DNA of 63,065 nucleotides, counting the filler, from Folioceros fuciformis (Eukaryota): NCBI GenBank assembly GCA_049999805.1. It is 16 parts of 16 records of this genome, joined end to end, with 100 filler letters (N's around TTAATTAATTAA, not from the genome) between each part and the next. Parts side by side here need not be neighbours in the genome. Positions count along the whole stretch, not along the records: positions 28,803 to 32,416 come from JBNGIO010001812.1; 15 more parts are not named here. One strand, given 5' to 3'. This document shows, one piece after another, positions 12,748 to 62,689 of the stretch. Below the pieces are notes generated by a model. That model was not told the DNA's origin, made no database searches, and saw only the letters and a list, made by a program, of their open reading frames with translations. The position numbers and the translations under genes were made by a program. Position 1 is the stretch's first letter. Each line of letters starts with the position of its first letter.

Positions 12748-15700
12748 CGCAAGTCGGAAAGGCTTCAAAGATTGTCCCTTGAGCTCAAAGCTAAGGACCA
12801 TCTAGCGTGGCCCAAGTTCTGGGGCTGGATGCCCAAGCCTTCTGCGATCCGGAATCTCTCAAGCAAGTCCCGCTAAATGGGTATCGACACTCTGAAGAAC
12901 TACGAGAGGGGGTCTCACTTGCGAATCATTTCCTGGAATGTTAGGGGTTTTTTTTTTTTGTCGAAGACGGCGTTGAAGTGTAGAAGACTAAAGAATCTGC
13001 TAGAAGAGGAAGTCACATGGGATGTGGTGTGCTTGCAAGAGCATAAATTATCTCTTGAGCACATCCAGAAAGTGAAGATCTTTCTTCTTGGTAGAACAGA
13101 ATGAGCAGCAGCTAGAGCAAAGGATACAAGAGGTGGACAAATCCCTTCTCAACGAGTTTCGGCGATCAACGGAGGTGTGTCCATTGCATTTCACTCAGAA
13201 CAAACTCATAACATCCTGGAATCGGGGCAAGATGAGAATGGGAGGTTTGTGTGGCTGGTGCTACAAGCTCCTCAAGGTCCGGTTGGAATCTGCAATATTT
13301 ACGCGCATAATGTTGCCATTGACAAGAATATCCTTTGGTGTAGGCTGGGAGAGCAGCTTGATGAGCAGATCCCATGGATGCTGGCTGGCGACTTCAACTT
13401 TGTTGAATGCTGTGAGGACATTCGAGGGGATAGCCTAGTTGATGTCCGGGCGGTGCCTCTGTCTTGGCAGGAGCTGAGAGACACGATCTTGGCTGTGCAA
13501 GACCCTTGGGTGGCCCTCCTGGCACATCGCTAACCACAGTCCTTGTTGTTTAGCTGGTCCAACCAACAACAACAGAATTTGGGAGCGCGTAGGTTGGACA
13601 GGTTTTATTTACATCAGGGTGGTCGGCCTTCGTACAATCGTACAGTATTCTTGCTGGTACGATCCTTTCCGACCACCACCTCATTAGCTTGCACTTGACG
13701 CTTGCTCCTGAGTCTGATCGCCCAAGGAGGCGTATGCAAACACATCCTTATTGAAGGAAAAAGGTGTCTTCGAAGATATCAAAAACATTTGGTAGGGAGT
13801 TGAACGGGGGGAAGAAAATGCGGCGGTCAAATTGATGTGTGCTAACAATGAGGCGACTAGGTATTTGAGGAGGCGAGGGGTTCAACGAGCAAGAGAACAA
13901 CGCCAGTAAGAATGTTTTTTGAGGGAGGAATTGTGCTGATTACAAAGGAGCTGCAAGGGCCGGGACTTCACAAGTACGGAAGAGGTCTGGAAAACAGAGG
14001 TGCAGTGCGCTTTGGCCAAGTTGGAAGAAGACAGGGCCAGAGGTTGGTTTAAGCGGACCAAAGTTAAGTGGGTGAAGGAGGGGGATGGCCCCTCTAAATT
14101 CTTCGATAAGGTGGCCTCTAACCAACACAGGACGCAAATCCTTGCCCTCCCAGACGCGCGTGGCATGGTGCAAGAGTTGCTCGAAGGGTTAAAAACTCTT
14201 ATTACCCTCTTTTGGTTGCATTTTCTCCAATGTTGGGAAAGTGGCAGGGTGGGAACGGCTTTGGTCTTGTTCATATGGCGCGCTTTCCGCTGAAGTGTCT
14301 GAGGACCAGCATAGGGCTCTAGATAAGCCGATAACTGCTGATAAGGTGTTTCAGGCCTTGAAGGGGATGCCGAGGTATAAATCCCCGGGGCACGATGGTA
14401 TCCCTCCCGAGTTCCTGCTCTGGGGTTGGGAATTTATGCAACCGTTGTTCATGCAAGCGGTTACTATGTTTTGGGAGGACGGTAGCATGGGGAGCTGGTT
14501 CAATATGGGGGTTATCTCCCTGCTCCCTAAGGAAGACGCCAGTTTATCAATCTCCAATTTGCGCCCGATTACCTTGCTCACTACCACGTATAAGGTGATT
14601 GCTAAGGTACAAGCTAACCGAATTACACCATTTCTTGATGATTGGATTGAGAAAGAGCAGCAAGGGTTCATTCAAAATAGGTGCATCCTAGATAACCTCC
14701 TACTCTTGAGGGAAGCTAAGTACAACGCTCAGGTACAAAAGAAAGCCACCATTTTCATTTCCCTTGACTTTTACAAGGCTTATGATTCTATTGAGTGGCA
14801 TTTCCTATGGCGATGCCTGTGTAGCTTCGGGTTTGGGAATAATTTCTGCAGATGGATAGCCATTTTGTGTGAAGACGCAGGAGCCAAGGTGGCTGTTAAT
14901 GGGTCTTTTACGAAGCGCTTTGGCATCTCTCGGTCGGTACGTCAGGGCTGCTCCCTTGCTCCATTCTTAATTATTATCGTCACTGACTTCTTTCTTAGAG
15001 CAGTCAAGCAAGACCTGGCAGTGGTGGCTATTCGGAACCCAGATGGAATGCAGCTAAGGGTCTCTGCATTTGCAGATGACACTCTCCTCTTTTCCTCGGT
15101 AGAGGAGGCCTCATTGAAAGCGTTGCTTCGACAGGTCAAGGTCTTTGGTGAGCTATTGGGCTGCAAGGTGAACTGGAGCAACACGCGCATGATGTGTCTT
15201 CACATGGAGGGGGAGCCTCCTCAATGTTTTAATCACATTAGGCAAGTGGCTCTGGGTTCCACCCACAAGTATTTGGAGCTTCCTTTCCAAGAGGGGGATG
15301 AGAATGGAGAGATTGGGAAATACGTCTGCCTTAGGTTCATTCACAAAGCGGCTAGTCTACAGTTGCTAGAGCTCAATCTGGCAGGTAGGCTGGTGATGAT
15401 TAATCATATCCTTATTGCCTCTCTATGGTACTATTTGTTTTTGTGGGCCCCTTCTAAGATAGAGGTGAAGTGCTTACAACAGGTGCTGACCTCTTTCCTG
15501 TGGAAGCGTTCGGGGGATAGTATGGTTGGGTGCTCTAAAGAGGTTTGGCAGCATATTATTCAGGTGCGTGGACTGGGGGGTCTCGGGGTTGGACCCGATT
15601 GCCAAGATGAAAGTTTTGCATGCTCAATGGGTTGTCAGGGCAACTGATCCGGCATACTATCCTTGGAAGAGTCTTCTAACGCAGCATTTGGACTGCACCC

Positions 15701-28702: not shown

Positions 28703-28802
28703 NNNNNNNNNNNNNNNNNNNNNNNNNNNNNNNNNNNNNNNNNNNNTTAATTAATTAANNNNNNNNNNNNNNNNNNNNNNNNNNNNNNNNNNNNNNNNNN
28801 NN

Positions 28803-29098
28803 TATTTAATCATTTAATATTATATACCTTTAATTAATATTAAACTAATCACCCAACCCTATGGCCTGGTACCGAACCTAAACCTTCCCAGGTCTGGGAC
28901 CAAACCTATACCCACTCTTATAACCAAACCAACTATTTCCTGGTCAATTAACCCAATTAGCACAAAGAAAAATAGGAAAAATGACCAGAAAATCAAGGAA
29001 AATTAGGGAAAATAAGTTGAAAAAGAAAACCAAACCATACCACTATTAACCCTTTTTCAACCAAAACAAACTACTACCCCAAACTTTGGAGGTTCACA
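28803..29098. repeat. LTR terminus, young high-copy family A
   Basis: Near-identical to 32517-32887 and 57057-57431; all end GGAGGTTCACA with different flanks. Confidence 0.9.
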
Positions 29099-29714
29099 TG
29101 TGCATCGAAGGTGGTTAGTGGAGTGGATGACTTGAGGTACTCTCGCTTGTACCACTTGGCCATAGCTCCACGCAGAACTCCGTAGAACAGCCAAACATGT
29201 TGCACGTCTCCTGCTTCCTAGTTGGCAATGGTCAGCTGCTCAAAATGCTGACAAAGTCGTCGGGATCCTCATACCCTTTCTTCTCCTCATACAGTGGGTA
29301 AGACTGCTTAGTGGTTACAGCTACTGGAGTAGTCATAGCGACTGTGGCAAGGTTCACAACGGCTGTAGTAGCAAATGCAACTACCACGCTGGGACTGACT
29401 TCTACACCCACAAAATTTGTCTGGACTGAAGTTGAGCAAGGCAATTTGGAATGGAGATCAACCAGCGGGCTTGGATCGGGGTACCTGGGCCCAGATACCT
29501 CCTCCCCACACGAGAGTTGCAGATTTGATTCAAGTGAAATTTGGCCTTCAGTTCCAGGCTGGCTCCTTGTCCCTCTTCCTTGTCCAACAAATGTGTTCCC
29601 CCGCTGCGACCTTCTGGCGACCCTCTGTAATCTCTCCGCCGCCTGACATTGCCGTCTTAGCAACAGTGTTTCTACACAATTAGGCTCAGAGTCGCTGGCC
29701 TTCACCCGAGGCAT
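29099..29714 (-). mobile_element. Athila-like Ty3/gypsy gag N-terminus (frameshifted, interrupted by family A)
   Basis: ATG 29714; YPLYEEKKGYEDPDDFVS then, in another frame, LFYGVLRGAMAKWY (Retrotrans_gag-like); 27-bp x3 repeat at 29732-29810 in the leader. Confidence 0.8.
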
Positions 29715-29844
29715 CCATCAACCTATCACTACCTAGACTCTCTATTCAGGCTACTCTATCTAGACACTCTATTCAGGATACTTTATCTAGACTCTATATT
29801 TAGGTAGTAGTTACTCCTACCTACGTTCTTGACAGCAGTACATT

Positions 29845-29861
29845 TCCCGGCAACGACACCA
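29845..29861 (-). promoter_or_regulatory. tRNA-Asp-type primer binding site (Athila-like)
   Basis: Minus strand LTR end TCCACA-TTT-TGGTGTCGTTGCCGGGA, versus the Athila-type TGGCGCCGTTGCCGGG. Confidence 0.85.
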
Positions 29862-29864
29862 AAA

Positions 29865-31680
29865 TGTGGAGGAAAATGTTTTGTTCGAGTCCACACAAAC
29901 CCTTTATGTCATTGTAGCCGTGGGAGCCGATCCCAAGGGAATGATTTGTGCCAAGTAACACATGTTTCTTCTACTACTGGCTCTTACTTAGGTCGGACCT
30001 TATCCCCTACCACTTTTACTACGTGCCAGCTTCCTACTACTACCCCCCAGTTAGCCTAGCTATCGTGGACCCTACTCTACGTCCCTGGTTCCTGCTCTAT
30101 GACCGGGATTGGGGTTTCCACAACCACTAGCACCTCTATGATCGATTGAGGTTTCCACAATCTGTAGCGGATTCCGCTACTGTGGTGGGTCCCACCCCAA
30201 GCCCTAACTAACACATGTCGACGCGGGTACCATCACGGGTTTCTGCCCGGAACCCCCTAAGTCGCGGGTTGGGGTTTATTGATCACTCCTCACACCCACA
30301 AATACACACTTAGACAACCCGGTTCCACGAGGCAACCACACCTTGCACTTCACACCCACATGGCGCTTCCAGCACACACCAAATCTCCCACGTACAGGTA
30401 CTCCTCACAACTCGCTCCCAAACATCTCCAACTCACAGCAGCGTCCGCGATTCCCCAGTGGTTTCTCAGTGATTCTTCACACCACAGACTCTTAACAGCG
30501 TTCCACAGTGTCCAAGAATTCCCCAGCAATCTCGTCTCAACCTTAACATTCTTCTCAAACACTCAGTCTCATAGCACACCCGTTCGCGGCCAACAATTTG
30601 GGAAATAAGGGAAGGAGAGACACTCCCTCCACTCCGCGGTCGGCAGATTTGTCTCCCTCAACTTAGCCACAGGCATGACTCACTCGTTCTCGTCTCACTC
30701 GCTTCTTCTCTCTTCTCCTTGTTACATGGTCACGTCTCAAACACTCACTCACTCTAACACCAAGTTCATGTTGCAGCCAACAGTTGGGAAATAAGGGAAG
30801 GAGGAATTCTCCCTCCACTCCGCGCAGTGGGCGGGTTCGTTTCCCTCCCTCAACTGCAATGCACAGTTAGTCTTCACCTCTACTCACTTCTCACCACTGT
30901 ATTTGAAAAGCACTTGAAGAGTCAGGGAATAAGGGAAGCGGGCACCCCTTCTTCCACTTTGCTCATGGGCGGATTCGTCCCTCTCACCTCAACCGCAAAC
31001 CACAGTTCGTCGATCTAGGGAATAAGGGAAGGATCGTTCTCCCTCCACTCCGCGCAGTGGGCGGATTCGTGCCCCTTCACTCCTACTGCGACACACAACG
31101 CGGATTACGGGGGATAGGAGAAGGTTGCCTTTCACTCGATGAGAAGCTCCACCGATTCGTCCCCGATACCACCCATCATGGAGTAGAGATATCGCCCACG
31201 CCTTCTCTTAGTAACGCCGCACGCACTTGCCTTCCCGGATCTCCCTATCCGGTAGCAGCTTTCGCCAAGCTTCCACAGGTTGGGATGTCAATTTCTCACT
31301 GCTTCGGTGAGGCGCCAACAGGCTTCTTGTACACGATGGCAGGTCTGCAGCCACCATTAATTCTAGTCTGCGGATAGGCTGGCGCTCTTAATTATGAGTG
31401 GCATTAGATCCAAGAAAGTATCTTCTCCAGATCCTACAGTATACTATTCTAAGATGCAATAACTATGGCCTATCTTATCGCCGCGATTGCCTCCTGTCCG
31501 GTCGTCGCGCTCCTCTTGCCTGCCAACCTTGAGCCCTCCTCCCTCGCCTTTTGTCAGACAAATCCTCCCACAGGATTTCTACCTCACCACTGCTGCTTGA
31601 CCTTTCCAGTGACGGCATGGGTGGGCCCCATCGAGGGGTGCTCCTTCCTCCCTCCATTCGCTTGTTGTTGAGGACCATCA
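29865..31680 (-). mobile_element. Athila-like long LTR adjacent to the PBS, including the C-terminus of an accessory ORF (31475-31680)
   Basis: Colinear homology with 38287-39770 at the terminus, the repeated motifs, the TATA region (GCTCTTAA on +) and EVEILWEDL...RRGRRA. Confidence 0.8.
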
Positions 31681-32416
31681 CGAGCTCAAGAGGGAAGGAG
31701 GCCGAAGCCTGGAGGCAGCTGGCGGAGTCCAAGACGGCGTGACAGCTCCTAGAGGAGAAGCAGTAGGTCCTGAGTGAGGACAAGGCACAGGTGGAGGAAG
31801 AGGCGCACCATGCGAAGGTAGAGATACAAACACTGAAGGAGCAACAGGGGAGACTCCTAGCTCAGGTGAGGGAAGCCCATGAGACTAATCTGGAAATGCA
31901 AAAGGAAATGGCTAAGGAGCAGGAGATGGCCGCGATGGAACAAGTTCAGAAGCTGGCCGACAGGTACAAACGGGAGCGGGACGAGGCCAGGGAGCGAGTA
32001 AAGGGGAAGGGCAAGGCTGGGCAAAGTAGCCGAATGGCGACGCCGGTAGCCAACGGGGCTACTAGTAGTCGAGTCCCAGTGCCGGTAGCTGACGGGGCTA
32101 CCAGTAGTCGAGTGGCCACGCCGGTAGCCGAAGGGGCTACCAGTAATCTTGTGACACCTGAGGTAGCCGAAGGAGCTACCGGTAGAGGAGGGACGACGCC
32201 GATAGCCGACGCCCCGACCTTGGTTGTCGAAGAAGTGCTGGCAAAGGTGCCTGTGCCCAGGCGCTCCAGGAGGGTCACTCGCGCCAGGCGGACTGAGCCG
32301 GGGAAGTAGCAGCAGCTGGAGGGATGGAGGACCCTCAAGTACCCTAGGAGAGCAGGGGACAAGGCAGCCCAAGGTAGCCCAAGGGAGGAAGGGGTAAGCA
32401 CCTTCTTTATGACAGA
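31681..32416 (+). pseudogene. Inverted N-terminal part of the LTR-associated ORF (coiled coil plus 13-aa repeats)
   Basis: AHETNLEMQKEMAK...QKLADRYKRERDEARERVKGK, PVADGATSSRV repeats, PRRSRRVTR, EEGVST; matches 39550-40602; a few in-frame stops. Confidence 0.85.
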
Positions 32417-32516
32417 NNNNNNNNNNNNNNNNNNNNNNNNNNNNNNNNNNNNNNNNNNNNTTAATTAATTAANNNNNNNNNNNNNNNNNNNNNNNNNNNN
32501 NNNNNNNNNNNNNNNN

Positions 32517-32887
32517 GACATACCCAGATACCCGTTCCTATGTTCAAACCATTATTTTATTATTATTTTATTTTATTATTATTATTTTATTATTTAATCA
32601 TTTAATAATTATATATCTTTAATTAATAGTAAACTAATCACCCAACCCTATGGCCTGGTACCAAACCTAAACCTTCCCAGGTCTGGGACCAAACCTATAC
32701 CCACTCTTATAACCAAACCAACTATTTCCTGGTCAATTAACCTAATTAGCACAAAGAAAAATAGGAAAAATGACCAGAAAATCAAGGAAAATTAGGAAAA
32801 ATAAGTAGAAAAATAAAACCAAACCATACCACTATTGACCCTTTTTCAACCAAAACAAACTACTACCCCAAACTTTGGAGGTTCACA
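32517..32887. repeat. LTR terminus, family A
   Basis: Near-identical to the copies at 28803 and 57057. Confidence 0.9.
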
Positions 32888-34104: not shown

Positions 34105-34399
34105 NNNNNNNNNNNNNNNNNNNNNNNNNNNNNNNNNNNNNNNNNNNNTTAATTAATTAANNNNNNNNNNNNNNNNNNNNNNNNNNNNNNNNNNNNNNNN
34201 NNNNGTATACGGTCCGTATACGTATACCCCCTATATTTTATAAGGTTTATATCTATTAGATACGTATTTAATACGTACTGATATGTATACCGTATACGTA
34301 TCCTCATATTTCTTTTCTTTTTATTTTCCTAATTTCCCCTTTTCTATTTTCATCCCTATTTTTCTGGATTTAATTCCAGAAATTCCAATTCAACTCCGT

Positions 34400-35769
34400 T
34401 TCACCTGCTTTCTTTTCCTCTTAGTTCAGGGCCTCCCCCAGCACCCCAGGGTTAGTCTTCCATGGCCGAGGAACCATTTCGGCTGGAAGCTGATCCCGCT
34501 AAATAAGCTACCGTTTTCAGGCAGGTTCCAGCTGTCGATCCCACTCCTTCCCACCTCTTCTCTATCTTTCCCACTTCTCATACTCCTTCCCTGGAGGCTG
34601 GCTTAGCCACCAAGGGTGAACAGTTGCAGGGGAAGACTCAGCGGGCGACCATCCAGCAAGGAAGAGGCGGCGTCCGCAGATCTTTGAAGATCAGACATCC
34701 TCCGAAGTCTCTGGATAGTCTAAGAGGTGGTAGATCCTTGTGGTGGTAGGGCCAGGAGCTCATTGGTGGCAGGTTGTGCTAGAAGTCTAAATAAGTGGCT
34801 GGTGACAGCCGGCTAGGCTATTAAAATAATATTTGTCAAGTTAGAGAGAGGTGAAGTCAGAGAGAGAGAGAGGCTCCTATAAGATCAGGTGAGCCTATAG
34901 GAGGAGGGAGTCATTCACTTTGGGAGTCAGTCTATCCCTTCGTGAGCTCTTGGAGGTCCTCTCTTCATGAGCTCTTGTGGTCTATCCCTGCTTGGTTTAG
35001 GACCTGCAGTGTGTTGCCGGCTGTGCAACGTCTGGTAGGATCGCAAGCCGTGTGTTGCCGGCTGTACAGTGTCTGGTAGGATCGCGGGCAGCGTGTTTCC
35101 GGTTGTATAGTGTCTGGTCGGATCACAAGGTGTAATGACCAGGGTGTAGGGGCTTGCCCCTAGCTCTTGATTGTAAAGGATGTGTCTTTCTCTCGACCTG
35201 TCCACTCTTGTTCCTTGCTTGGACAAGTGCTGTAGGCCGTCCATGTCTCATGGTGTCTGGTAAGGTTGTGGGGAGGAGATATCCAAGAGGGGAGTGTGTT
35301 CCCTTCTTTCTTTTCTTGAGGGTTAGTCTAGTGACTCTTGCCGGGTAGGAGGAGTTAGCAGGGAAGTGTAGAAGGTAGTGGTGTCGTTGCTGGTAGTTGC
35401 TGGTGTTGGTGCCGGAGTGAGAGAGTGAGTGAAGTGTGTGAGGGAAGTCGCAGATCTGAGAGGTTAGAGTCGTTGTAGTGACTGGAGTGAGTTTGTGGGC
35501 ACCGAGAGAGGTGCAGCTGACCGCCGGACAGCGAGGCCTGTTCTACGCCTGATCGGAGCTGGAGGGGAGCCCTCGAATCCATCATCGAGTCGATCAAGTC
35601 CGACCCTCCATTCACAGCAGCAAGGAACCCCATCGCTCCTTCGTGGGAACGAAACCCAATGTCTCAACGACAGTGGGATAAGTGTGGCCACTAAAGGTGG
35701 AACCCGTTGGCAATCAGTGCCCGGGGTTTTGCCTCCACACTCCACGCGCTGGTCTGGTGGGTGGTGACA
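34400..35769 (+). mobile_element. LTR-like segment containing a 41-bp x3 tandem repeat (35006-35128)
   Basis: CCTATAAG TATA-like site at ~34876; repeat units at 35006, 35047 and 35088; ends GTGGTGACA at 35769; left boundary uncertain. Confidence 0.5.
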
Positions 35770-36899
35770 TAGGCTAGGAGCTCTAGTCAATTGGCCTGCC
35801 CCGTTGGCACACTCAATACCCAATTCCATCTTCATGGTCATCCTTTGCACTGTTGTTGCTGACGATTTGCCTCTCCGCTTGCTGAGTTGAGAGGTAATCA
35901 CTCATGATGTCTTCTTCCCATAGATTCTCATCAACACGGACTGGTGTTGTTGGATCTATAGGCTCTGATTCCAAAGATGCAACAATCCAAATCTGTAGAC
36001 GTTGCTTAGTGAGACTCTTCACAACCTTTCTCGCCCTCCCATTGATGTTCATTCCTTATAAGGCCTTGGATGGGTTCAGTCCAAGAGGCTTGAGACTGCT
36101 GTTGGGAGGTTGTTACAATTGTGCTCTTGCTGAACACAACTAGCCATCCTAATTGTACCCTTAACACCTAATTACCCATAGTCTATTTACCATCTGCCCT
36201 AGTTTACCTAGTGTGTCTAGTCACGGTGCCTATTTGGCACTTATCCTCTCTGCAATGACTAGGATGGTGAGTGGAGGAGTTAGGGGTACCTCTACTGAAA
36301 GTTGGTTGGTGTAGAACAAGACTTCATTCGGGTTGCGAGGTCAGCCAAGCCATGGCTATGGCATAGGGCCTCTTTCATGTGGAGGCCATGTTGTGATTGC
36401 TGGGTGTAGGCATAAGCGTTTGCATGTTTGGCTTTAGCAAGAGGGATCACAACAACCATTTATACTTGAGAGGACTAGAGCTGGCAAGCGATATGGATGG
36501 ATGTCATTGCTCATAAAGGGAGACGATAATTAGAAGGATGCCAAGGGGACTTAGCTTCATGCAGGGCACATAGAGGTCTGTAATCAATACAACACCCGAG
36601 TTTCCGTCTATTGGAAAATCAAGTTCGGTGCACATGTCGGCAGATCTTGGGAGAAGAGAATTCGACTACCAACACCAAATGAGGGAAAAGGATGGAGGAG
36701 ACGTCGATGAGGAGGTCGCGTCTGATGAAGAAAGTGGCAATGTTTAGCATCTATGTCAATGTAGATTGTTTGGCAATGTCATCCATACCATTGAAACAGG
36801 GCCAACATCCATTACATCAGCCAAGCATCATGCCAATGGAGCCAAGAATAACAGCTCCTTCATCTTGAAAATGCAAGGTGACACCTTGAAGGCGGCCAG

Positions 36900-38286
36900 C
36901 TCTTTGACAAAATGAAGATATGTATCAAATCGGCACATTCGTGCAAAGAAATTGTGCGTACCATGCTTGATTCAAAGGACATAGGAGTCCCATTGCTATC
37001 ACAAAGGCTACTTGTTAAGGATTGGTAAGAAATTCATAGAGCAATTGAGGTATCAATTTTCTGACATTGGGCGGGGAGTAACAGGAGCTTTTTTTGCAAG
37101 GCTTGCTGGAGGAAAAGGTTGGCTCGGATGCACTACTCAATGTTTCCATTTATCTGTTAGGAGAGGATAAATTCTCGCGTTGTGTGAAAAGTTTTCGGAA
37201 GGTGTTTTGCATAGGCTGGGAAAGGTACTAGGACTTAAAGAAATGGGTGCTACTCAATGTGCCATGGTCTTTGGAGTTGAACAAATAGACTTGATCAAAA
37301 GAAGACCATGTCTTGGAGTGCATTTCTTGGATGTATCACTTCTTCAAGTTGACCTTCGAGAGGCTACCCAATGCATCTCTATACCACCTTACCGATTCGT
37401 ACACCAAGGGAGAGATCTTTTTGGAGTACAAGCAAGAAGTATGCAATGAAGGTCTCACCAACGTCTCCCATTCCCACTTTTGTGCTCTCTCGAAATGTAC
37501 TTCCCAAAAGTGAAAATTCCAAAGAGCAATAGATTCTCCAACTGCGTTGAATGTGAAACTTTGAAGTATGTGATTGAGAATGCAAGTGACCGCCTACAAT
37601 AAGGTAAGCCTCCCGCCTCACTTTGTTAATAAGAAATTGGAGGCCTAACACGCTTAAGGCACCTACTAGAGGCCAGTCGCACCCTTAGGTGCGTCAACGT
37701 GCCTTGGTGCACCATCTAGCCCGCCAATGAGGACTGGCAAGTACTTGGGCAACCCAGCTGCCCTAGCAAGCCAGATGTGTTGGCGATGCCACTAGCACAC
37801 GGATTGGCATAGCAAAAGTCCCATATGCGCCCGGTAGGGATAGGTGTTTTTGGGATGCTGCAAATATGGACACAAAAAAGCCTGACTCTCTTGCATCTTG
37901 TTTGCTGCAAGAGTCTTATGAAGCCAAGTTGTCTTGAGTGCCCATCAAGAATAGATTTAAGAGGACAGAGCAAAGCTAGGGAAGCATCGATGCAAATGTG
38001 AAGGCAAGCCAAGTCAATATATTGGAATGACAATATATGGAATGGACTAGAGCAAAATGGAACTATCAAACTTCACAAGACCTCCAAAGGATGTTGCTAA
38101 GGGGCTCATCTGCGTTCATCTTATGGGCTACCTTGTCTACAACACTAGAATGTGGACAAAAGTTTTCCTCAACTTCCCGAACATCTGAAATGACGCAAAA
38201 TTAACAATTCATATCATATAGGATGTCATTTCTAACTACAAAGGGGTATTGCCCAAGACTTTTTATCCACAGCTGGACAACAATGC
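36900..38286 (+). mobile_element. Sola-like (DUF7869-type) DDD transposase pseudogene, interrupted by the Athila-like LTR
   Basis: YHLTDSYTKGEIFLEY...VSHSHFCAL, FPKVKIPKSNRFSNCVEC, MTIYGMD*SK, VHLMGYLV, NDAKLTIHII, LPKTFYPQLDNNA ending at 38286. Confidence 0.7.
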
Positions 38287-40603
38287 TGTGGGGTTAAAAT
38301 ATGGTACCCGGGGGTACCGCGAGGTCCACACAAGCCCTCTATGTCGTTGTAGCTCTGGGATTCGATCCCAAGGGAATGATTCGTGTTAAACTACACAGGT
38401 TAGCTTCTAAAGTCAATTAGCACCTAAACTCGACTGACCCACGCACACACCTCCAGTGCTCAGTCCTTACCCAGCCCCCTTACTTCTCCCACCAGACGAC
38501 TCTCCTAGCACCCAGTCACACCAGGGGGACTACCTCCCCCTGGACTACTCTTGGTGGGCCACCGGACTACCCTCCATTCCCCAATGGACTACTACCGTCG
38601 TCTTTCGGGCTACCACTCGTGGGCCCCACTCTCTCTCTCTCTTTGTCTCTCTAGGATTTTCTCTCTCCGAGTCATCCCTACCCGGCTGTTTTCTCGCGCT
38701 TTCCCTTTTGCGCTTTCCTTCCTTGGTTCTCCACAAAATCGCCTCTCACCCTCAGGATCAAACGCACACACATATGAACAGCAACAATCTGCCGATCGCC
38801 TTCCACCCGTGTGATTTCACACTCTAGGTACACCCTCTGCAGTCTCAAATCAACTTCCTCACAGTCTCTCCAGTCTCATCGCGGCTAGTCACTCATACAC
38901 ACCACGTCTCGTTACACATTACTCACCTCGCTTCCAGGGTTTCTCCGGCTTCGTTCTCCACTCACCAGTTTTCGATATACGTTCTCCTTGTCTCTGGTTA
39001 CTCGCTTCTCCTCTTTCTCACACACGCGCACCCTCGCGCTTCTTTTTTATCCAATCCTCCGTCTTCTTTCTCAGCAATGCCCCTCCTGGGCTTCCATGAA
39101 CATTGAGGAATGGTGAGGTACCGGAGCTAAGGGAAGAGGGACCTCTTCCACTCCGAACTCGCGGATTCGGCTCCGACACCCACACCACCCACGTGACCAC
39201 TCCGAGGATAGCTGGGGAGCTTCTCTCCCACTCGGCGAGGCTCCTCCTCCCGATTCGTCCCCTGACCTGATCACGGAGCGCCCACCACCTACACCCGCAC
39301 CCCAGGTTGCTACGTGCGCTCGCTTGCCTGGACCTCCTATCCAGCAACGGCCATCGCTAGGTTCCTGCAAGGTCGACTACTCGGCTGGTGTTTTGCTCCT
39401 TCCTTAGGCCTTCAAACCGGCCTCTTGTACACGGTGATGGCAGTTTTTCCGCCATAAAGTCTGTCAGGCAAGGGGGCTGCGCTCTTAAATTCTGAGCGAC
39501 TTGGGTCCAAATAAAGCACGCTAAAAAAAACTATTCTAGCCTGCATTTACTATCGCCCTGTCCTGCGCCACTGGCGGCTTCCTCCTGGCCTTCGCACGTC
39601 ACCCCTCGCTGCTCCTCCTCTCGCTCTTCTGCCCCTCCGTTGATCCGGCAGGTCCTCCCAGAGGATCTCCACATCATTGCTGCTGTTGCTGGGCCTGGCT
39701 GGCGGTGCAGGTGGGTCCCGCCGCTGTGGTCCACCACCCCTCCTCCTTCTCTGGTTGCTGAGGACAGCCACAGGCCCCCGTTCTACCCAGCGTTGGGCCT
39801 CCTCTTCCGTCAGTTCCTCCAGAATTGCCTCCGCATAGTAGTGGGGCAGTCCTGTCACCCACCATCTGTAGTGGTAGAGTCCCAGGCGCGTCCTCAACTG
39901 CAGCACGTAGCCCCGCGTCCCTCCTGTGCCCATACGTACATACAAAAACAGCTTCAAAACCCTGGCCCCTTCTACATATAGTACTGGCACATAGGAGGCC
40001 TCCTCCTCATACTGCAGCACAATCCGACCTTCTGTCATCATAGAGGTGCTTACCCCGTCCTCCCTTGGGCTACCTCGGGTTGCCTGCTCCCCCTCCTGCT
40101 GGGGTACCTGAAGGTTCTCTGCCTGCCCAGCTGGTGTCTCCTCCGGTTCTGTTCTCCTGGTACGGGTCACCCTCCTAGAGCGCCTAGGGGCAGGCGCCCC
40201 TATTGCTTCCTCCTTTTCAAGGGTTGGTTCTTCAGCTATCCTGGGCCTTGCTGGGCCACCGGTAGCCCCATCGACTACCCGACTACTGGTAGTCCCGTGG
40301 ACTACCGGACTATCGGTAGCCCCGTCGGCTACCCGACTACTGGTAGTCCCGTGGACTACCGGACTACCGGTAGCCCCCTCGACTACCGTTCCCCTGGTTC
40401 GGCTACCGGTAGCCCCGTCGGCTACCGGGGTCGTCGTTTGACTTGGGCGCCCAGCCTTGCTCTTCCCCTTCACTCTCTCTCTGGCCTCATCCCGCTCCTG
40501 CTTGTATCTGTCAGCTAACTTCTGAGCCTGCTCCACAGCGGCTATCTCCATCTCTTGTGCCTTGGCCATTTCCTGTTGCAACTCCAGGTTAGTCTCGTGA
40601 GCC
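38287..40603 (-). mobile_element. Athila-like 3' or solo LTR with accessory ORF
   Basis: Terminus homologous to 29865 but flanked by the Sola-like target instead of a PBS; TATA-like ATTTAAGAGC at ~39490 on the minus strand. Confidence 0.8.
39550..40602 (-). CDS. Uninterrupted accessory ORF (>=350 aa, open at the contig edge): coiled coil, VADGAT repeats, aromatic domain, Arg-rich tail
   Basis: Open frame with homologues at 28533-28702, 31475-31680 and 31681-32416. Confidence 0.85.
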   Translation of the reverse strand, partial: AHETNLELQQEMAKAQEMEIAAVEQAQKLADRYKQERDEARERVKGKSKAGRPSQTTTPVADGATGSRTRGTVVEGATGSPVVHGTTSSRVADGATDSPVVHGTTSSRVVDGATGGPARPRIAEEPTLEKEEAIGAPAPRRSRRVTRTRRTEPEETPAGQAENLQVPQQEGEQATRGSPREDGVSTSMMTEGRIVLQYEEEASYVPVLYVEGARVLKLFLYVRMGTGGTRGYVLQLRTRLGLYHYRWWVTGLPHYYAEAILEELTEEEAQRWVERGPVAVLSNQRRRRGGGPQRRDPPAPPARPSNSSNDVEILWEDLPDQRRGRRARGGAARGDVRRPGGSRQWRRTGR

Positions 40604-41213
40604 NNNNNNNNNNNNNNNNNNNNNNNNNNNNNNNNNNNNNNNNNNNNTTAATTAATTAANNNNNNNNNNNNNNNNNNNNNNNNNNNNNNNNNNNNNNNNN
40701 NNNAGTAAAGAGCTTACCTTGTACGTCCTTTGCTTTTGTGAATCCAGCTCTTTGGATTGATACGTTAGTTAATTTCAATAAATTTCTTAAGAAGTGCATC
40801 TTTCGTATAAGCTAGAAGAATATTCCTCGACATAAAACTAATGGAATTTGACTGCATGCTTTGTGATGGATAACATCCATCCAAGTCTGGCACGAAACTA
40901 CCGAGAGCTGCAAAGGGGAAAAGCTAGGATGGTACGCAGAGAGTTTGTGCGCCCTCCAACATTGACTCACAGTCATCAGGTTGGCCAAGTAACGACTACG
41001 GGCCAAAGGCGTGTGGCCACGAGAGGGGAAGGAAATGTGGAGTCCAACATTTCATTGTGATGCACACCTTTCACCGACTGAAGACGTGGTTGGTGGTCCT
41101 TCAAAGACCAGGACTCGTCTACGACTTGTTGACGCTCCTGATCCTTCTTGAGAAGCTGAAGGAAGCTATAAAGGACCGTGAGAGCTTCTACAGCGTGAAG
41201 TGTGAAGCTCACA

Positions 41214-56852: not shown

Positions 56853-57431
56853 AAGGTGGGAAGGGAGATGAGAGGGAAGGGGAAGAAGAAGGAGGGGGGC
56901 AAGAAGGGAATGGAGGAGCAAGGAAGAAAGGAAGAGAGGGGGAAAAGGGATGGGGACGGCCGCAACCCTTGCCTCTAGCTCTAGCTAGGGCATGGCCTCC
57001 ATGGCCGTTCATGCCAGCCAAGCAATCAGCCAGCCTATCGTCAGACCCTGACCCCTGACACTGACATGCCCAGATACCCGTTCCTATGTTCAAACCATTA
57101 TTATATTATTTTTATTATTTAATATTATTATATTATTATTTAATCATTAATATTATATATCTTTAATTAATATTAAACTAATCACCCAACCCTATGGCCT
57201 GGTGCCGAACCTAAACCTTCCCAGGTCTGGGACCAAACCTATACCCACTCTTATAACCAAGCTAACTATTTCCTGGTCAATTAACCTAATTAGCACAAAG
57301 AAAAATAGGAAAAATGACCAGAAAATCAAGGAAAATTAGGGAAAATAAGTTGAAAAAGAAAACCAAACCATACCACTATTAACCCTTTTTCAACCAAAAC
57401 AAACTACTACCCCAAACTTTGGAGGTTCACA
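56853..57431. repeat. LTR terminus, family A, inserted in copia RT
   Basis: Near-identical to the 28803 and 32517 copies; copia RT resumes at 57432. Confidence 0.9.
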
Positions 57432-60400
57432 CCAGGGCTTTCAAGATACTGAGAAAGTACGCTTGTGGCGTAGGTAACATCATGTCATGTTGTGTTGGCT
57501 GCATAGATAAATTTGCCAATGCCCTTCCTATAAGGAACTGACCTCATTTCATCTTTCTCGCTTTGTATTTCAGGGCTCATGGACTCGCTAAATTTCAGTC
57601 CACAAGGTAATGGGGTAGCTGCTGGTTTTGCTTCCTTCAAGCCAAGCTGTTCAGCACATTCTAACAAGTAGCGAGGGTGAGTAAGAGATATAGATCTATT
57701 TTTCCTATCCCTTTGAATAAGAACCCCCAGACGGCTTTGTAGAGCTCCAAGGTTCGTCATTTCAAACTTGGTAGCTAACAGGTTGTTAATTTTGGTGATG
57801 AATGTGGGGCTATTGGAGGACAAGATCAAATCATCCTTGTATACTGCCAGATAGCAAACCACATCACCGGATCTGTAAACGTACAAGTTGCTATCTGAAA
57901 CACACTTCACGAAACCTAAGGATCGCAGCTCTTCATCTAGGACAACATTCCATTCAAGAGCTGACTGCTTCAGCCCATGCAAGGTTTTTATAAGGCGTAA
58001 GACGTAATCCTCTTTGCCCTTAACTTTGTATCCTAGTGGTTGCTGCATATAGATTTCGGTGTCGAGTTTGCTATGCAAAAACGCTGTCTTTACATCAAAC
58101 ATGTCTAACTCGTAGTCCTAATGTGTTGCCAAGGCACAAATTGTGCGGAAAGTGGCCAGCTTCATGACAGGAGCATGTCTCAAAGTAATCAAGACCAGGC
58201 ACTTGTGAAAAACCATGAGCTACGAGTCGTGCTTTGTACCTGTCAAACGTTCCATCTGCCTTCACCTTTAATTTAAACACCCACTTGCATGATACCACCT
58301 TTCATCCAGGAGGTAACTTAGAAAGTTCCCATATCCCATTTTTGATCAATGAATCATAATCTAATTGTATAGCCTCTTTCCATTAAGTAGCATCGGGACG
58401 GCTAAGAGCTTCTTCATAGGATTGAGGTTCAATTTGATCCAAAGAAGTGGTTGCATTAGCTGTTGGTTTTCAGAAGTCTTGTGACTGGTAGTAATCTGGT
58501 GCCCGTCGATCTCTTGCATGATAACGGCGCTCAAATGGTGGAGGCTATCCAGGTTCAGGTGGTAAAGGCTGAAGTGTAAGTTCACCTTCTGCATCACTAT
58601 CTAAAGGATCAGCATAGTCAACAGCTGTATCCTCATCAGAATCTGGAACTGAAATGGGATTGGGTAAAAGGTTAGGTGGTGGATTAGGTTCTGCAGCATT
58701 TAGAGGAGGTTGATGTTGCAAGTTAGCAAAGTGTTGTGCATCATCCTACTCCTACTCATTAGGTAGTTGTTCTTCCCCCCCTACAGGAGCAACCTCCTCG
58801 GGTATAATATAAGGGAAAATAGTGACGGCGGGCAGGGTAGAGAAGTCAAGTTCCTCTTCTGTGGGAACAGCTCCCACTAGCTGCCAAGTGCGACCTTCAT
58901 CAAACGCCACGCTGCGTGCATAGACCACCTTGTTTTGAGGTACGTCATAAAGTTTATAAGCCTTGATACCTTCAGTATATCCTATCATGAGGTATTTCTT
59001 GGCTTTAGCAGCTAATTTGGATCTCTGGGCCTTAGGGATGAAAACATATGCAACACAGCCGAAAGTCCAAAGATGTAGGATAGCTGGCTTTCTGCCATAG
59101 AAAGCTTTGTAAGGGGTCTGTCTGACCACAATCGTTGTAGGCAGTCTGTTATGGAGAAACACAGCTGTCATGAGGGCTTCAGCCCAGTATGATAGAGGCA
59201 ATGAGGCTTGATGAAGCATAGAGGAAGCCATCTCCTGCAAGGTCACGTTCAAGCGCTCAGCAACACCGTTTTGCTACGGTGTATAAACAACAATAAGTTG
59301 TCTCCCAATGCCTTCATCCTTGCAATAGGCTTGAAATTCGTTTGATGGGAATTCACCACCATTGTTTGAACGTAGAGTCTTTAGCTGTACGCCTGACCAT
59401 CTCTCTACAAGTTTCATATAGTCTTTAAACAGAGAGAAACACTCATGTTTAGCTTTCAAAATGTAAGCCATGGACAAATCTCGTTTTGTCATCTATAAAT
59501 GTGAGGAAATATCTACCTCCTCCTATGGAAGGCTGCGAAAGTGGCCCACATATATCAGTGTGCACAAGTTCAAGAACGACACAAGCCCTGCGAGGAGCCT
59601 TGTTCTTGAAAGCTGCCTTATGGCGTTTAGACAACAAACAAGCCTCACATGAGGGTAAGGGTGGGAAATTGCCAATTTTCCTGTCACCAAATAGGTCACT
59701 AACAGCTAGTTTCTGTAACTTGGCGCTGTGAGGATGACCTAATCTAGTATGCCATAACATAGCCTTCACTTTCTACTTTGCAAATATCTCAGAAGACTTG
59801 GAAGCTAAATGGGCTATGGTAGTGCTAATGTGAGTGTGCAACCGAAACAGGTCAATGTCTAACGAGCCATAGGCTAGAATCTTTCAATGATCAAAAGCAT
59901 CTAGGATTCTACATTCTGTTGGAGTGAATAGCATATGTGTGCTGTTATCCAAATTGAGTCTCCTAACAAAAATGAGGTTCCTAGTCATTTCAGGCACGTT
60001 ATACACATCTGTGAGTGAGAGTGTAATGCCTGAAGGGACAAGAAGCTATACTGTGCCAATGCCTGGGCACACAAGCCTACTATTGTCACCTAGGTAAACA
60101 AAACTATCTTGAACTAACCTATATGTGACAAATGCATTTCTATCGAAACAGATGTGCGCTGTGGCACCTATATCAAGGAACCACTCCAGTATGGGTTTGC
60201 CTTGAGTATTCATCGATAGACAAGTTGGATTAATAAAAGGGTGAGTAAACTCCCTAGTCCGCACCGTGAGCACAAAAGGCAAGCCTTGTTTTGTCACAAT
60301 AACATGTGTCTAAGAAGTGGAGTTGCCCTCCTTGCGAGGTACTATGGATTGCTTCTTTCGACACTCATTCTCCCAATGGCCTGGAATTTGGCACCAGTGG

Positions 60401-62689
60401 CACTTTCTAGCCTTCTTGGGTTTCTTATGTGTAGAAGCTCTATGTGAGCTACTAGCACTTGAGGTATTCTGTTTACCTTTGAAGTTGGGCTTTTTGCCCT
60501 TTACTTTGTTGTGAGTGTACAAAGCTTGCTGTTTACAAGGACGTTTAAATTGTCCTCTTGTAGCCTCTTCCTGAAGAAGGGCTCCCACAAATTCTACAAA
60601 TGTGGTTTTGGGGAGATCAACACCTACAGCCTTAGCTATCTTACGACCTTGTAGCTGCAAAGTGTTGAAGGAGGTCACGAAATGTAACCAAGATTCTGGG
60701 AGGGACATCATGAAGTGTAGGATAAGTGCTGAGTCCTTTACACTTTCCTGTGTTACACTTTCGAATTTAGAGACAAGAGTTCTATAAACGGCTAAATGTC
60801 TATTGATAGATTCTCCTTCTTTCGTTTTCAAATTTTGTATATTGCAAAGAGCTGCCATTTGAGTTGTGTCATCCGTTCCTGCATACAGATCCTGGAGCCG
60901 CGACCAGATCTTAGGTGAGGTATCACATCTAGAGGTCTGTCTCAACATATCAGTTGTCAGCTCACTCCGAATCAGGTATTGTGCAACTCCATCCTTAACT
61001 GTCCAGGCATCCTGTGCCTTCTTTTCAATAGTACATGGAGTAGATGTAGTGGCAAGGAACTTTTCTTTCCCGTTTGCCCATGCCCACAATTGTTTATTTT
61101 GTAAGGCTCCTCGCATTCTAATGACCCAGATATCATAATCTGCCCCCCCAAATCTATCCTTCTCCCTAAATCCCTCTCCCGCTAAATTAGCATTAGTGTC
61201 ACCCATGTTTGATACTGTTGTTAGTCCTCCTCACAGTGAGGATATTATGGATGAACAACTAATCTTCCTGTCTGACCTATCCAATGCAGATCAACAGGAA
61301 TAAGGATTCGGGAATAATTTAGAATGCAACTGGCACATCAAGAGTAAGCAGCAGACCACAGCCTACTTATCACAAAGGTAAGATGGGTTCAGACTCCTGA
61401 TCAGCTCTACGTAGGTTGACCATCTGCCTGTCTACCTGTTCCCTTCTGTTCTGATTCTTAATCTCCCAACGATTAAATGCATAGGTTAAGCACGATGGAC
61501 ACGAATTTGGGTGATCAAAAGTATGATGCCTTTTAGCCTTAGATGCATGCTTACATGCCGTACCCCTAATGGCAGGATTAGCAAGAAGAGCAGGCTTCAA
61601 CAAAGCAAGCAACTTGAAATCTAAGTGCCCAATCCGCTCCAGCAAAACTCGAAAATCTTTAGTGACAGCAACAAGCTTCTAACTAATGTTTTCAAAATGT
61701 CTATCTACATATGCTAATGTGCTTCTAACCTGGAATTTAACTGTGATACGCTTGTGTGTGGTGCAACATTTGTGGTAAGAAATCCCCTAGGATTACATTT
61801 ACTATCAAAAGCTCGCTGCATGCGCACTTCTGGGAGATTGTGAGGATTCCTCAGTGGAGGGGCAAATGCCAGATGTTGATGTTCTGGAAAGAGGGCTTCA
61901 ATTTGAGTAGTGAATGACTCCCTCACTTCAAGCGCTAGAATTGGTTGATTGCGAGTGCATGCAGCCCATTCCGTGACTTGCTGATGGAGCTGCTTGGCAG
62001 TGACCCGTCTTGTTGCATTTGCTTGCGCACCTTGTCCCCTTCGGTGATTTCATGGTTCTTCAAAGGGGATCAGCCATTTTGGGCCTGGTTGCCCGTCCTG
62101 AGGATCAGCCATTCATCTGGCCAGAATTCTTGTGTTTTGGAAAATTTCAAGATTCATTTTGTAATTTCTATATGATTTCATAAAGATATTTGCCACTTCT
62201 GGCAGTCGTTCTAGCATGCCTCGTGTCACATTGCTTTGTAGCAATCCGGCAACACATGCACTAGAATGGGCTCCTAGAAATGCAAAATTTCTGAATACAA
62301 ATCAACAAAGATAAACTACAAAAAACATGTTCTTGTTTTCTTATTAGAAACTATTTTCTAATCAAGAAACAAAACACATAAAATATATATACATAATTTA
62401 ATGTGCATTCTCATGAATGCAATCTGCACCTGTCATGGCTCTAATACCATAACAAAATATAAGAATAGTACATATCAATTACATGTTTAGTAATTACATT
62501 GTCATATGTTCATAAGAATATGAAGTATCTAAAATAGCTTGGAAACTAGACTTAATCTAATTGTGAAAAGGCATGACCTTTGGGCTAAAGACGTAACCCT
62601 AGCGAACGGGTAAGTGGCCACACATTCAAATATATATGTATACACACTAAATATGTAGATATACCCAAACCCTAAATAATGAATCAACA
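57432..62689 (-). mobile_element. Ty1/copia element: LTR 62450-62689, PBS 62438-62449, 1.2-kb leader, gag 61206-60310, decayed PR/INT/RT
   Basis: TGGTATTAGAGC; CHWCQIPGHWENEC; WFLDIGATAH; LWHTRLGH; VHTDICGP; CKWVFKLK...YKARLVAHG; DVKTAFLH; LHGLKQS; LAVYKDDL. Confidence 0.96.

Follow-up and report, generated by a model that had tools for sequence, protein, structure and literature searches.

Why should a short unit that can be drawn as a three-way junction recur several times within the same small interval, and is its fold maintained, or is the repetition simply a matter of tandem duplication? The question is raised by the window analysed here, that is, the whole stretch of 63,065 bases, in which the initial annotation had described seven copies of such a unit. 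All seven were recovered where they had been placed and with the stems that had been assigned to them. The window is made up of 16 separate pieces (1.5–6.9 kb) with 15 identical artificial linkers between them (N44-TTAATTAATTAA-N44), and one locus is excluded; copies c1 to c5 lie on one piece, contig A, and copies c6 and c7 on another, contig B (Table 1).

Contigs A and B are collinear, diverged relatives that are only patchily similar. In both, an 87-nt block is followed by the arrays and then by a collinear stretch of ~60–65% similarity; the similarity is 81% over 86 nt and thereafter ~60–65%, up to ~31690 in contig A and ~39765 in contig B. A global alignment of the non-coding stretches between array and open reading frame (ORF) gives 31–41 matches per 60 columns. 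The 87-nt block is covered by contigs from the organism's own sequencing runs far above the level of its flanks (52 contigs in run X1). Its tRNA-like look is unsupported, as neither an ARAGORN tRNA nor an Rfam match was found for it.

Table 1. Features of contigs A and B and neighbouring linkers, in window coordinates.
Feature	Position	Strand	Remarks
c1, type I	30600..30657	-	77.2 bits; three-way junction is the minimum-energy fold on -
c2, type I	30786..30845	-	84.3 bits; three-way junction is the minimum-energy fold on both strands
c3, type I, diverged stems	30924..30982	-	68.5 bits; junction 1.1 (+) / 2.4 (-) kcal/mol above minimum-energy fold
c4, type I	31017..31076	-	71.9 bits; junction 0 (+) / 1.3 (-) kcal/mol above minimum-energy fold
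c5, type II, ORF-proximal in contig A	31108..31165	-	21 bits, E 7.6e-4; junction 0.8 (-) / 6.0 (+) kcal/mol above minimum
c6, type I, contig B	39122..39175	-	67.2 bits; best single-copy z: -2.67 (+), -2.56 (-)
c7, type II, contig B, ORF-proximal	39203..39264	-	12.6 bits, E 0.28; junction 0.2-0.6 kcal/mol above minimum
Artificial linker N44-TTAATTAATTAA-N44, left end of contig A	28703..28802	.	
Further linkers of the same kind	32417-32516, 34105-34204, 40604-40703		
Contig A (five copies, c1-c5)	28803-32416		
Contig B (two copies, c6-c7)	34205-40603		
87-nt block	29887..29973	.	match at 38324-38409 (81%); 627-713 nt beyond array
Non-coding stretch between ORF stop and array	31166..31474	-	blocks conserved versus 39265-39549
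ORF, contig B	39550..40602	-	350 codons, cut by contig end; stop 286 nt from c7
Same ORF, C-terminal part, contig A	31475..31861	-	35/78 identical to residues 257-334 of contig B protein, E 2e-16; stop 310 nt from c5
Same ORF, N-terminal part, contig A	31875..32306	+	inverted relative to C-terminal part; 93/158 identical, E 9e-39

The copies share one architecture and fall into two subtypes, type I (c1–c4 and c6) and type II (c5 and c7), which are old; in both contigs, the type II copy is the right-most on the plus strand and the closest to the ORF. From one start to the next, the copies are 186, 138, 93 and 91 nt apart in contig A and 82 nt apart in contig B, with a period of ~82–93 nt where the array is intact, and at the head-to-tail joints present in contigs from the organism's own sequencing runs the next unit follows 29–34 letters after the previous one. 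Given these spacings and the head-to-tail joints in other genomic copies, the arrangement is therefore a degenerate tandem array, whose copy number varies (five in contig A versus two in contig B). The spacers, which had been described as unrelated, are not entirely so: they are much less alike than the units (mean column identity 42% versus 67%), and those after c2–c4 have a short stretch in common. A coding repeat, considered on the grounds that the spacings of c1–c4 are multiples of 3, was rejected: the unit lengths of 54–62 nt differ by non-multiples of 3, indels in the loops break the frame and stops occur in all frames across the array. In run X1, 932 of 1,277,711 records match the 2.6 kb around the array at ≥80% likeness, 441 of them being <90% alike, and the family is multi-copy and diverged, with copies that may number in the hundreds. 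No sequencing run recorded as RNA contains the stretch. Five partly fitting contigs were seen in run X4, a run whose RNA type is only guessed; they have no bearing on transcription or strand.

The variation in the stems was reported to preserve pairing, and this held when it was counted. The count covered the 19 pairs of the annotated structure (126 cells) against 500 shuffles and slid controls, and all of its values refer to seven related sequences of one genome, in which c1, c2 and c4 are near-identical in their stems and from which the structure itself was derived. Changes on both sides of a pair were found for 9 of the 19 pairs on each strand, compared with 3.4 ± 1.4 in shuffles (0/500 reach 9) and 1–4 in slid controls on the plus strand, and with 3.3 ± 1.4 (0/500) and 0–2, respectively, on the minus strand. 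Overall, 85.7% of the 126 cells are paired in the plus alignment versus 78.3% in shuffles, and 89.7% versus 81.8% in the minus alignment. Covariation, on which the proposal had been made to depend, thus stands out against every control run here, with n=7 and a structure taken from the same sequences.

One of the helices, stem A, sets an all-purine arm opposite an all-pyrimidine arm, so that chance pairing is easy, and a comparison with all other column pairs was used as the control for such arms. Pairs that are both compensated and at least 70% paired make up 8 of the 19 structure pairs in the minus alignment versus 66 of 1875 other column pairs (Fisher 2e-7), a ~12-fold enrichment of compensated pairs; the corresponding figures for the plus alignment are 7/19 and 76/1927, with helices that are less clean. 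Among stacked runs of at least five pairs in the minus alignment, only the three proposed helices carry compensations. Most of the compensated changes are borne by c6, a copy with three perfect stems, and some are double transversions: the outer stem of c6, the arms of which are ~50 nt apart, has gone from G-C to C-G and from A-U to C-G, and stem B has gone from C-G to G-C in both c5 and c7. The asymmetry of G-U versus A-C is mixed between helices. While the stems change, the bases of the junction are conserved, as the initial annotation had stated and as the seven-copy alignment bears out: along the minus strand they read CGAA / GU / CU(U)A, equivalent to UAAG / AC / UUCG on the plus strand, and the loops are free in both sequence and length. 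Paired changes together with a fixed junction are what selection on a fold would leave in the sequence, whether the fold is one of RNA or of single-stranded cDNA.

The fold comes out more fully on one strand than on the other. With the alignments as its only input, RNAalifold arrives at the three-way junction for either strand, with 16 pairs and -13.6 kcal/mol on the minus strand versus 13 pairs and -8.1 kcal/mol on the plus strand. The earlier choice of the minus strand as the RNA strand agrees with its better pairing, its fuller RNAalifold fold and its lower single-copy z-scores. Measured against dinucleotide shuffles, the z-scores of c1 to c7 are -1.96, -1.93, -0.86, -1.76, +0.07, -2.56 and -0.02 on the minus strand and 0.25, -1.01, -0.05, 0.09, -1.18, -2.67 and 0.44 on the plus strand, most of them between 0 and -2, and the 641-nt array as a whole gives -1.1 (minus) and +1.1 (plus). 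Folding beyond dinucleotide-shuffled controls, also put forward in the initial annotation as a measure of its proposal, largely failed, both for the copies taken singly and for the array as a whole. On each strand, 6 of 7 copies have an end-closed three-way junction that comes within 2.5 kcal/mol of the optimum, versus 10–26 of 100 shuffles per copy. When ±150 nt of context are included, all three helices are retained by c1 only, and the pair probability of the outer stem is ≤0.06 in c2–c5 and c7 and 0.43 in c6. Thermodynamic support for the fold is weak.

The neighbourhood of the arrays bears on what their transcript could be. Both arrays follow, at a distance of 286–310 nt from its stop, a co-oriented minus-strand ORF, which is cut by the contig end in contig B and is present in two parts in contig A. 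Mismatches between the two contigs are distributed over the three codon positions as 27/142, 28/142 and 51/143 in the N-terminal part (19/20/36%) and as 40/113, 31/112 and 49/109 in the C-terminal part, an excess at the third position that is typical of coding sequence. Because the C- and N-terminal parts of the ORF are on opposite strands, contig A is either rearranged or chimeric, and the break lies near 31862–31874. The predicted product has an N-terminal helix (confident in the model), 9-residue repeats and an arginine-rich tail; it has no Pfam domain, no homolog among proteins of 192–613 aa and no atlas match, and its AlphaFold model, at a mean pLDDT of 46.8, is unusable. The position of the array thus described is 3'UTR-like on the better-folding strand, behind a real ORF.

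This position differs from the one first proposed, which was the 5' leader of a genomic RNA within the R/U5 region of an LTR, with the second array in a sister LTR. The array is downstream of the stop of the co-oriented ORF and a leader position is unsupported, the two arrays are on different contigs across artificial linkers, so that they are not two LTRs of one element, and neither an LTR pair nor a primer-binding site (PBS), polypurine tract (PPT) or retroelement protein was found in contig A or B. Self-comparison gave no second direct copy within either contig, and no terminal inverted repeat was found in the two. Inspection of the minus strand by eye for TG..CA, PBS and PPT brought up, as candidates, stretches rich in purines and the TGTGT with which the 87-nt block starts. 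None of them is both adjacent and convincing, and a site complementary to a tRNA was not recognised in this way either. The two contigs hold 70 ORFs of at least 60 aa; 47 of these were submitted to Pfam and returned no gag or pol domain, the 23 left out being located in the motif and in the flanking non-coding stretches. Domains of copia gag, integrase and reverse transcriptase (RT) and of LINE RT, RNase H and zf-RVT are confined to pieces other than A and B. Together with the number of short pieces, they suggest that the source is a plant-like eukaryote rich in repeats and with a fragmented assembly. The element is possibly an LTR retrotransposon.

How far the motif extends beyond the seven copies was addressed with patterns and with a covariance model. 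A pattern written for the unit's second half has four matches in the whole window versus 0.01 expected. The covariance model was built from c1–c4 and c6 with the annotated structure. With filters off, it reached E ≤ 10 at 21 places in the whole window: on the plus strand, the five training copies (E ≤ 6e-18) together with c5 and c7 (E values in Table 1); on the minus strand, four partial matches, all overlapping known copies; and ten matches elsewhere, with E of 1.7–9.4, which are regarded as noise. By this model there are no copies beyond the seven in the 63 kb. In metagenomes, the full motif is absent among the matches listed for a loose 15-base pattern (at least 116 loci). A 17-base pattern matched at least 120 bacterial and 33 viral loci, once each and with no eukaryotic locus among the matches listed, and these are taken as chance matches; a 22-base pattern gave no viral and three bacterial single matches. 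At gathering score, nothing in the whole window matches Rfam 15, and under permissive filters (E ≤ 10) both array regions and the 87-nt block gave unrelated sub-threshold matches only, while ARAGORN predicted no tRNA gene in the whole window. A literature search, which covered papers apart from their supplements, retrieved none on the motif or on a covarying three-way junction in a plant retroelement.

We tentatively hypothesize, at somewhat less than even chances, that a structured RNA module with a role in cis is repeated here, as a degenerate tandem array, in the transcript of a multi-copy element. The array would sit in a non-coding stretch just past the ORF of this element, which is unclassified, belongs to a plant-like genome and may be an LTR retrotransposon. 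On the ORF strand (minus), each unit would run from the outer stem through CGAA, a hairpin, GU, a second hairpin and CU(U)A back to the outer stem. As part of the element's own transcript, the array would act in cis, and its units may be repeated docking sites for a protein, with roles in packaging, nuclear export or stability and protection of the RNA. A candidate partner would be the arginine-rich tail of the upstream ORF product, and the repetition of units would give avidity. A bolder proposal, which we consider doubtful, is that the units, as three-way junctions built round a fixed CGAA/GU/CU(U)A core and present in multiple copies in a plant-type mobile element, form a class of small structured RNAs not described before. 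Such RNAs would be dedicated signals for protein docking, export, packaging or the blocking of exonucleases or, with lower probability, a new motif for self-cleavage. A pseudoknot between loop B and the downstream spacer (ACUGC) was considered as well and set aside, being found by eye in c2 and c4 only and without covariation.

The main rival is a neutral tandem repeat, in which an ancestral unit with chance inverted repeats was amplified by slippage during replication or reverse transcription, after the manner of the hypervariable arrays in Tat/Ogre 3'UTRs; it is possible, if on the unlikely side, and arrays of DNA sites, a ribozyme or a pol III relic are less likely still. In a neutral repeat the stems would be kept by inertia, and the compensations would come from the small sample, the purine/pyrimidine arms, the choice of alignment, quasi-palindrome correction or gene conversion between arms. 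Much of what is seen fits: the units are tandem and degenerate with a copy number of five versus two, most copies and the array fold no better than shuffles, the junction is unstable in context and forms in 10–26% of shuffles as well, and tandem arrays of this sort are common and hypervariable according to the available part of PMC7004042. However, neutrality does not readily account for compensated pairs that are enriched ~12-fold in the structure (8/19 versus 66/1875) and exceed 500 of 500 shuffles and every slid control, for double transversions in an outer stem with arms ~50 nt apart, for junction bases that are kept while loops are free, or for the same architecture in two old subtypes. 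If covariation fails in a deep alignment, the finding becomes that of an ordinary tandem repeat.

The remaining alternatives place the function, if any, elsewhere. LTR U3 regions and transposon subtermini often contain arrays of short, reiterated, conserved blocks with variable spacers, and the conserved blocks TAAGGGAAG, CCACTC and GATTCG could accordingly be read as protein sites rather than as junctions, either in a transcription-factor array (an LTR U3 enhancer) or as subterminal transposase or integrase sites. This we judge improbable: paired changes between distant arms are not predicted by it, the array is 3' of a co-oriented ORF, and neither an LTR pair nor a terminal inverted repeat is demonstrable. 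Three helices about a conserved junction, reiterated in a mobile-element transcript, also recall a small self-cleaving ribozyme on one transcript strand, new or degenerate and hammerhead-like, as in retrozymes and Penelope-like elements. Type II hammerheads have the junction order GAAA / H / CUGANGA, to which CGAA / GU / CUUA on the minus strand is, by eye, loosely similar, but the CUGANGA core is lacking, a G occupies the would-be cleavage site, no tertiary contacts are evident and no ribozyme family is matched at E ≤ 10 (Rfam 15, permissive filters), which leaves this explanation very improbable. Least probable of all is that the element captured a pol III gene (tRNA, 5S or SINE-type), as Cassandra captured 5S, and that the units are what is left of it. 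It would be suggested by the string GCGCAGTGG followed by GG(G/A)TTCG in c2 and c4, which resembles an A- and a B-box when compared by eye with the familiar box consensus. The A-box-like string is nevertheless only the variable loop of c2 and c4, with a different sequence in the remaining five, the "boxes" directly adjoin each other instead of being 30–60 nt apart, ARAGORN predicts no gene and no tRNA or 5S family of Rfam is matched at E ≤ 10.

The cis-acting RNA module that we favour has partial counterparts among known systems. It is similar to the hammerheads of retrozymes and Penelope-like elements in having three helices round a conserved junction within mobile-element repeats, but is without their catalytic core and has no Rfam hammerhead match at E ≤ 10. 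The exoribonuclease-resistant RNAs of flaviviruses and plant viruses are compact three-way-junction modules of ~60–70 nt that are often tandem-duplicated in the 3'UTR; the units described here are likewise compact, tandem three-way-junction modules, but have no Rfam match to these RNAs and, by eye, no covarying pseudoknot between loop B and spacer. Cassandra TRIM elements carry 5S RNA in their LTRs and so also place the sequence of a three-way-junction RNA within the repeats of a plant retroelement, although the present unit measures 60 nt versus 120 nt and has no 5S match.

A closer resemblance is offered by the Tat/Ogre Ty3-gypsy retrotransposons, whose 3'UTR contains tandem repeats that are hypervariable (Macas 2009 as cited in PMC7004042). 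As far as the available part of that article describes them, these arrays resemble the present one in being short and tandem, in their variable copy number and monomer length and in following the last ORF of a multi-copy, plant-type element. In contrast, the monomer core here keeps a three-way junction with compensated stems, and the term "secondary structure" does not occur in the available part of PMC7004042. Also, contigs A and B yielded neither a Tat/Ogre pol nor a PPT or LTR. The array is tandem and is located between the ORF and the element's 3' side, with the stop 286 nt away in contig B and 310 nt away in contig A, as in the Tat/Ogre type, and the tandem-repeat 3'UTR of Tat/Ogre elements is its closest anatomical analogue. 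If the proposed module is real, at least some "hypervariable" 3' tandem arrays of retroelements would be under structural selection and not junk.

With respect to function, cis-acting RNA structures for export, packaging and stability are known in retroviruses and a few animal retroelements. The IAP RTE, the musD MTE and the MPMV CTE are located 3' of the coding region, and some of them contain internally repeated binding sites. The first two are described as RNA transport elements in the available part of the review PMC12786077, according to which there are no direct studies of LTR-retrotransposon RNA export in plants. Like these three elements, the array is proposed to be a structured, cis-acting RNA in the element's own transcript; unlike them, it has no sequence or family relation to the group, whose members are animal and have known partners (NXF1, RBM15), and its function is a predicted one. 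A reiterated, covarying three-way junction in a high-copy element nevertheless represents a concrete and testable candidate for such a signal in plants, and the RNA transport elements of IAP and musD would, by analogy, be its closest functional analogues.

The substitution pattern of the orphan ORF, a minus-strand frame ending 286 nt (contig B, 34205-40603) or 310 nt (contig A, 28803-32416) from the array of three-way-junction motifs, is of the coding type, and searches of Pfam, of homologs and of the atlas all returned no match to it. Its layout comprises a long N-terminal helix, a C-terminal tail rich in arginine, and 9-residue repeats in tandem, seen in the DNA as 27-nt repeats at 40258-40388. 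The copy in contig A consists of two halves lying in opposite orientation, with the middle absent. An inverted match (77%) to the ORF middle (39815-39981) occupies the end of a third contig (28536-28702), which indicates that more copies of the family exist.

Contigs A and B also have in common an 87-nt block, which may represent a conserved terminus or an independent short repeat. Coverage of the contig A copy by contigs of the organism's runs lies far above that of its flanks, with 52 contigs from one of these sequencing runs, X1, at position 29926. No tRNA or Rfam match to the block was found. A T-arm-like GGGATTCGATCCC occurs inside it.

Features of the window by position
Feature	Coordinates	Remarks
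87-nt conserved block	29887-29973 (contig A); 38324-38409 (contig B)	81% between contigs
Orphan ORF	39550-40602 (-); 31475-31861 (-); 31875-32306 (+)	
Copia gag/integrase, LINE-type RT, copia RT/gag fragments	423-2408; 14193-15647; 57485-58117; 60310-61230	contigs other than A and B
Short tandem array, 41-nt x3	35006-35129 (contig B)	outside motif array
Short tandem array, 27-nt x2.8	29729-29804 (contig A)	outside motif array
~296-nt stretch	28803-29098; 32591-32887; 57137-57431	97-98% identical, three separate contigs

The 16 contigs that make up the window are connected at 15 sites within 3599-56852 (e.g. 28703-28802 and 32417-32516) by identical artificial linkers, each consisting of 44 N, TTAATTAATTAA and another 44 N; any inference across a linker, be it of LTR pairs or of synteny, is not valid. 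The ~296-nt stretch, located at or close to the contig start in two of its three contigs, is probably a young repeat where assembly broke. Repeat DNA makes up the entire window.
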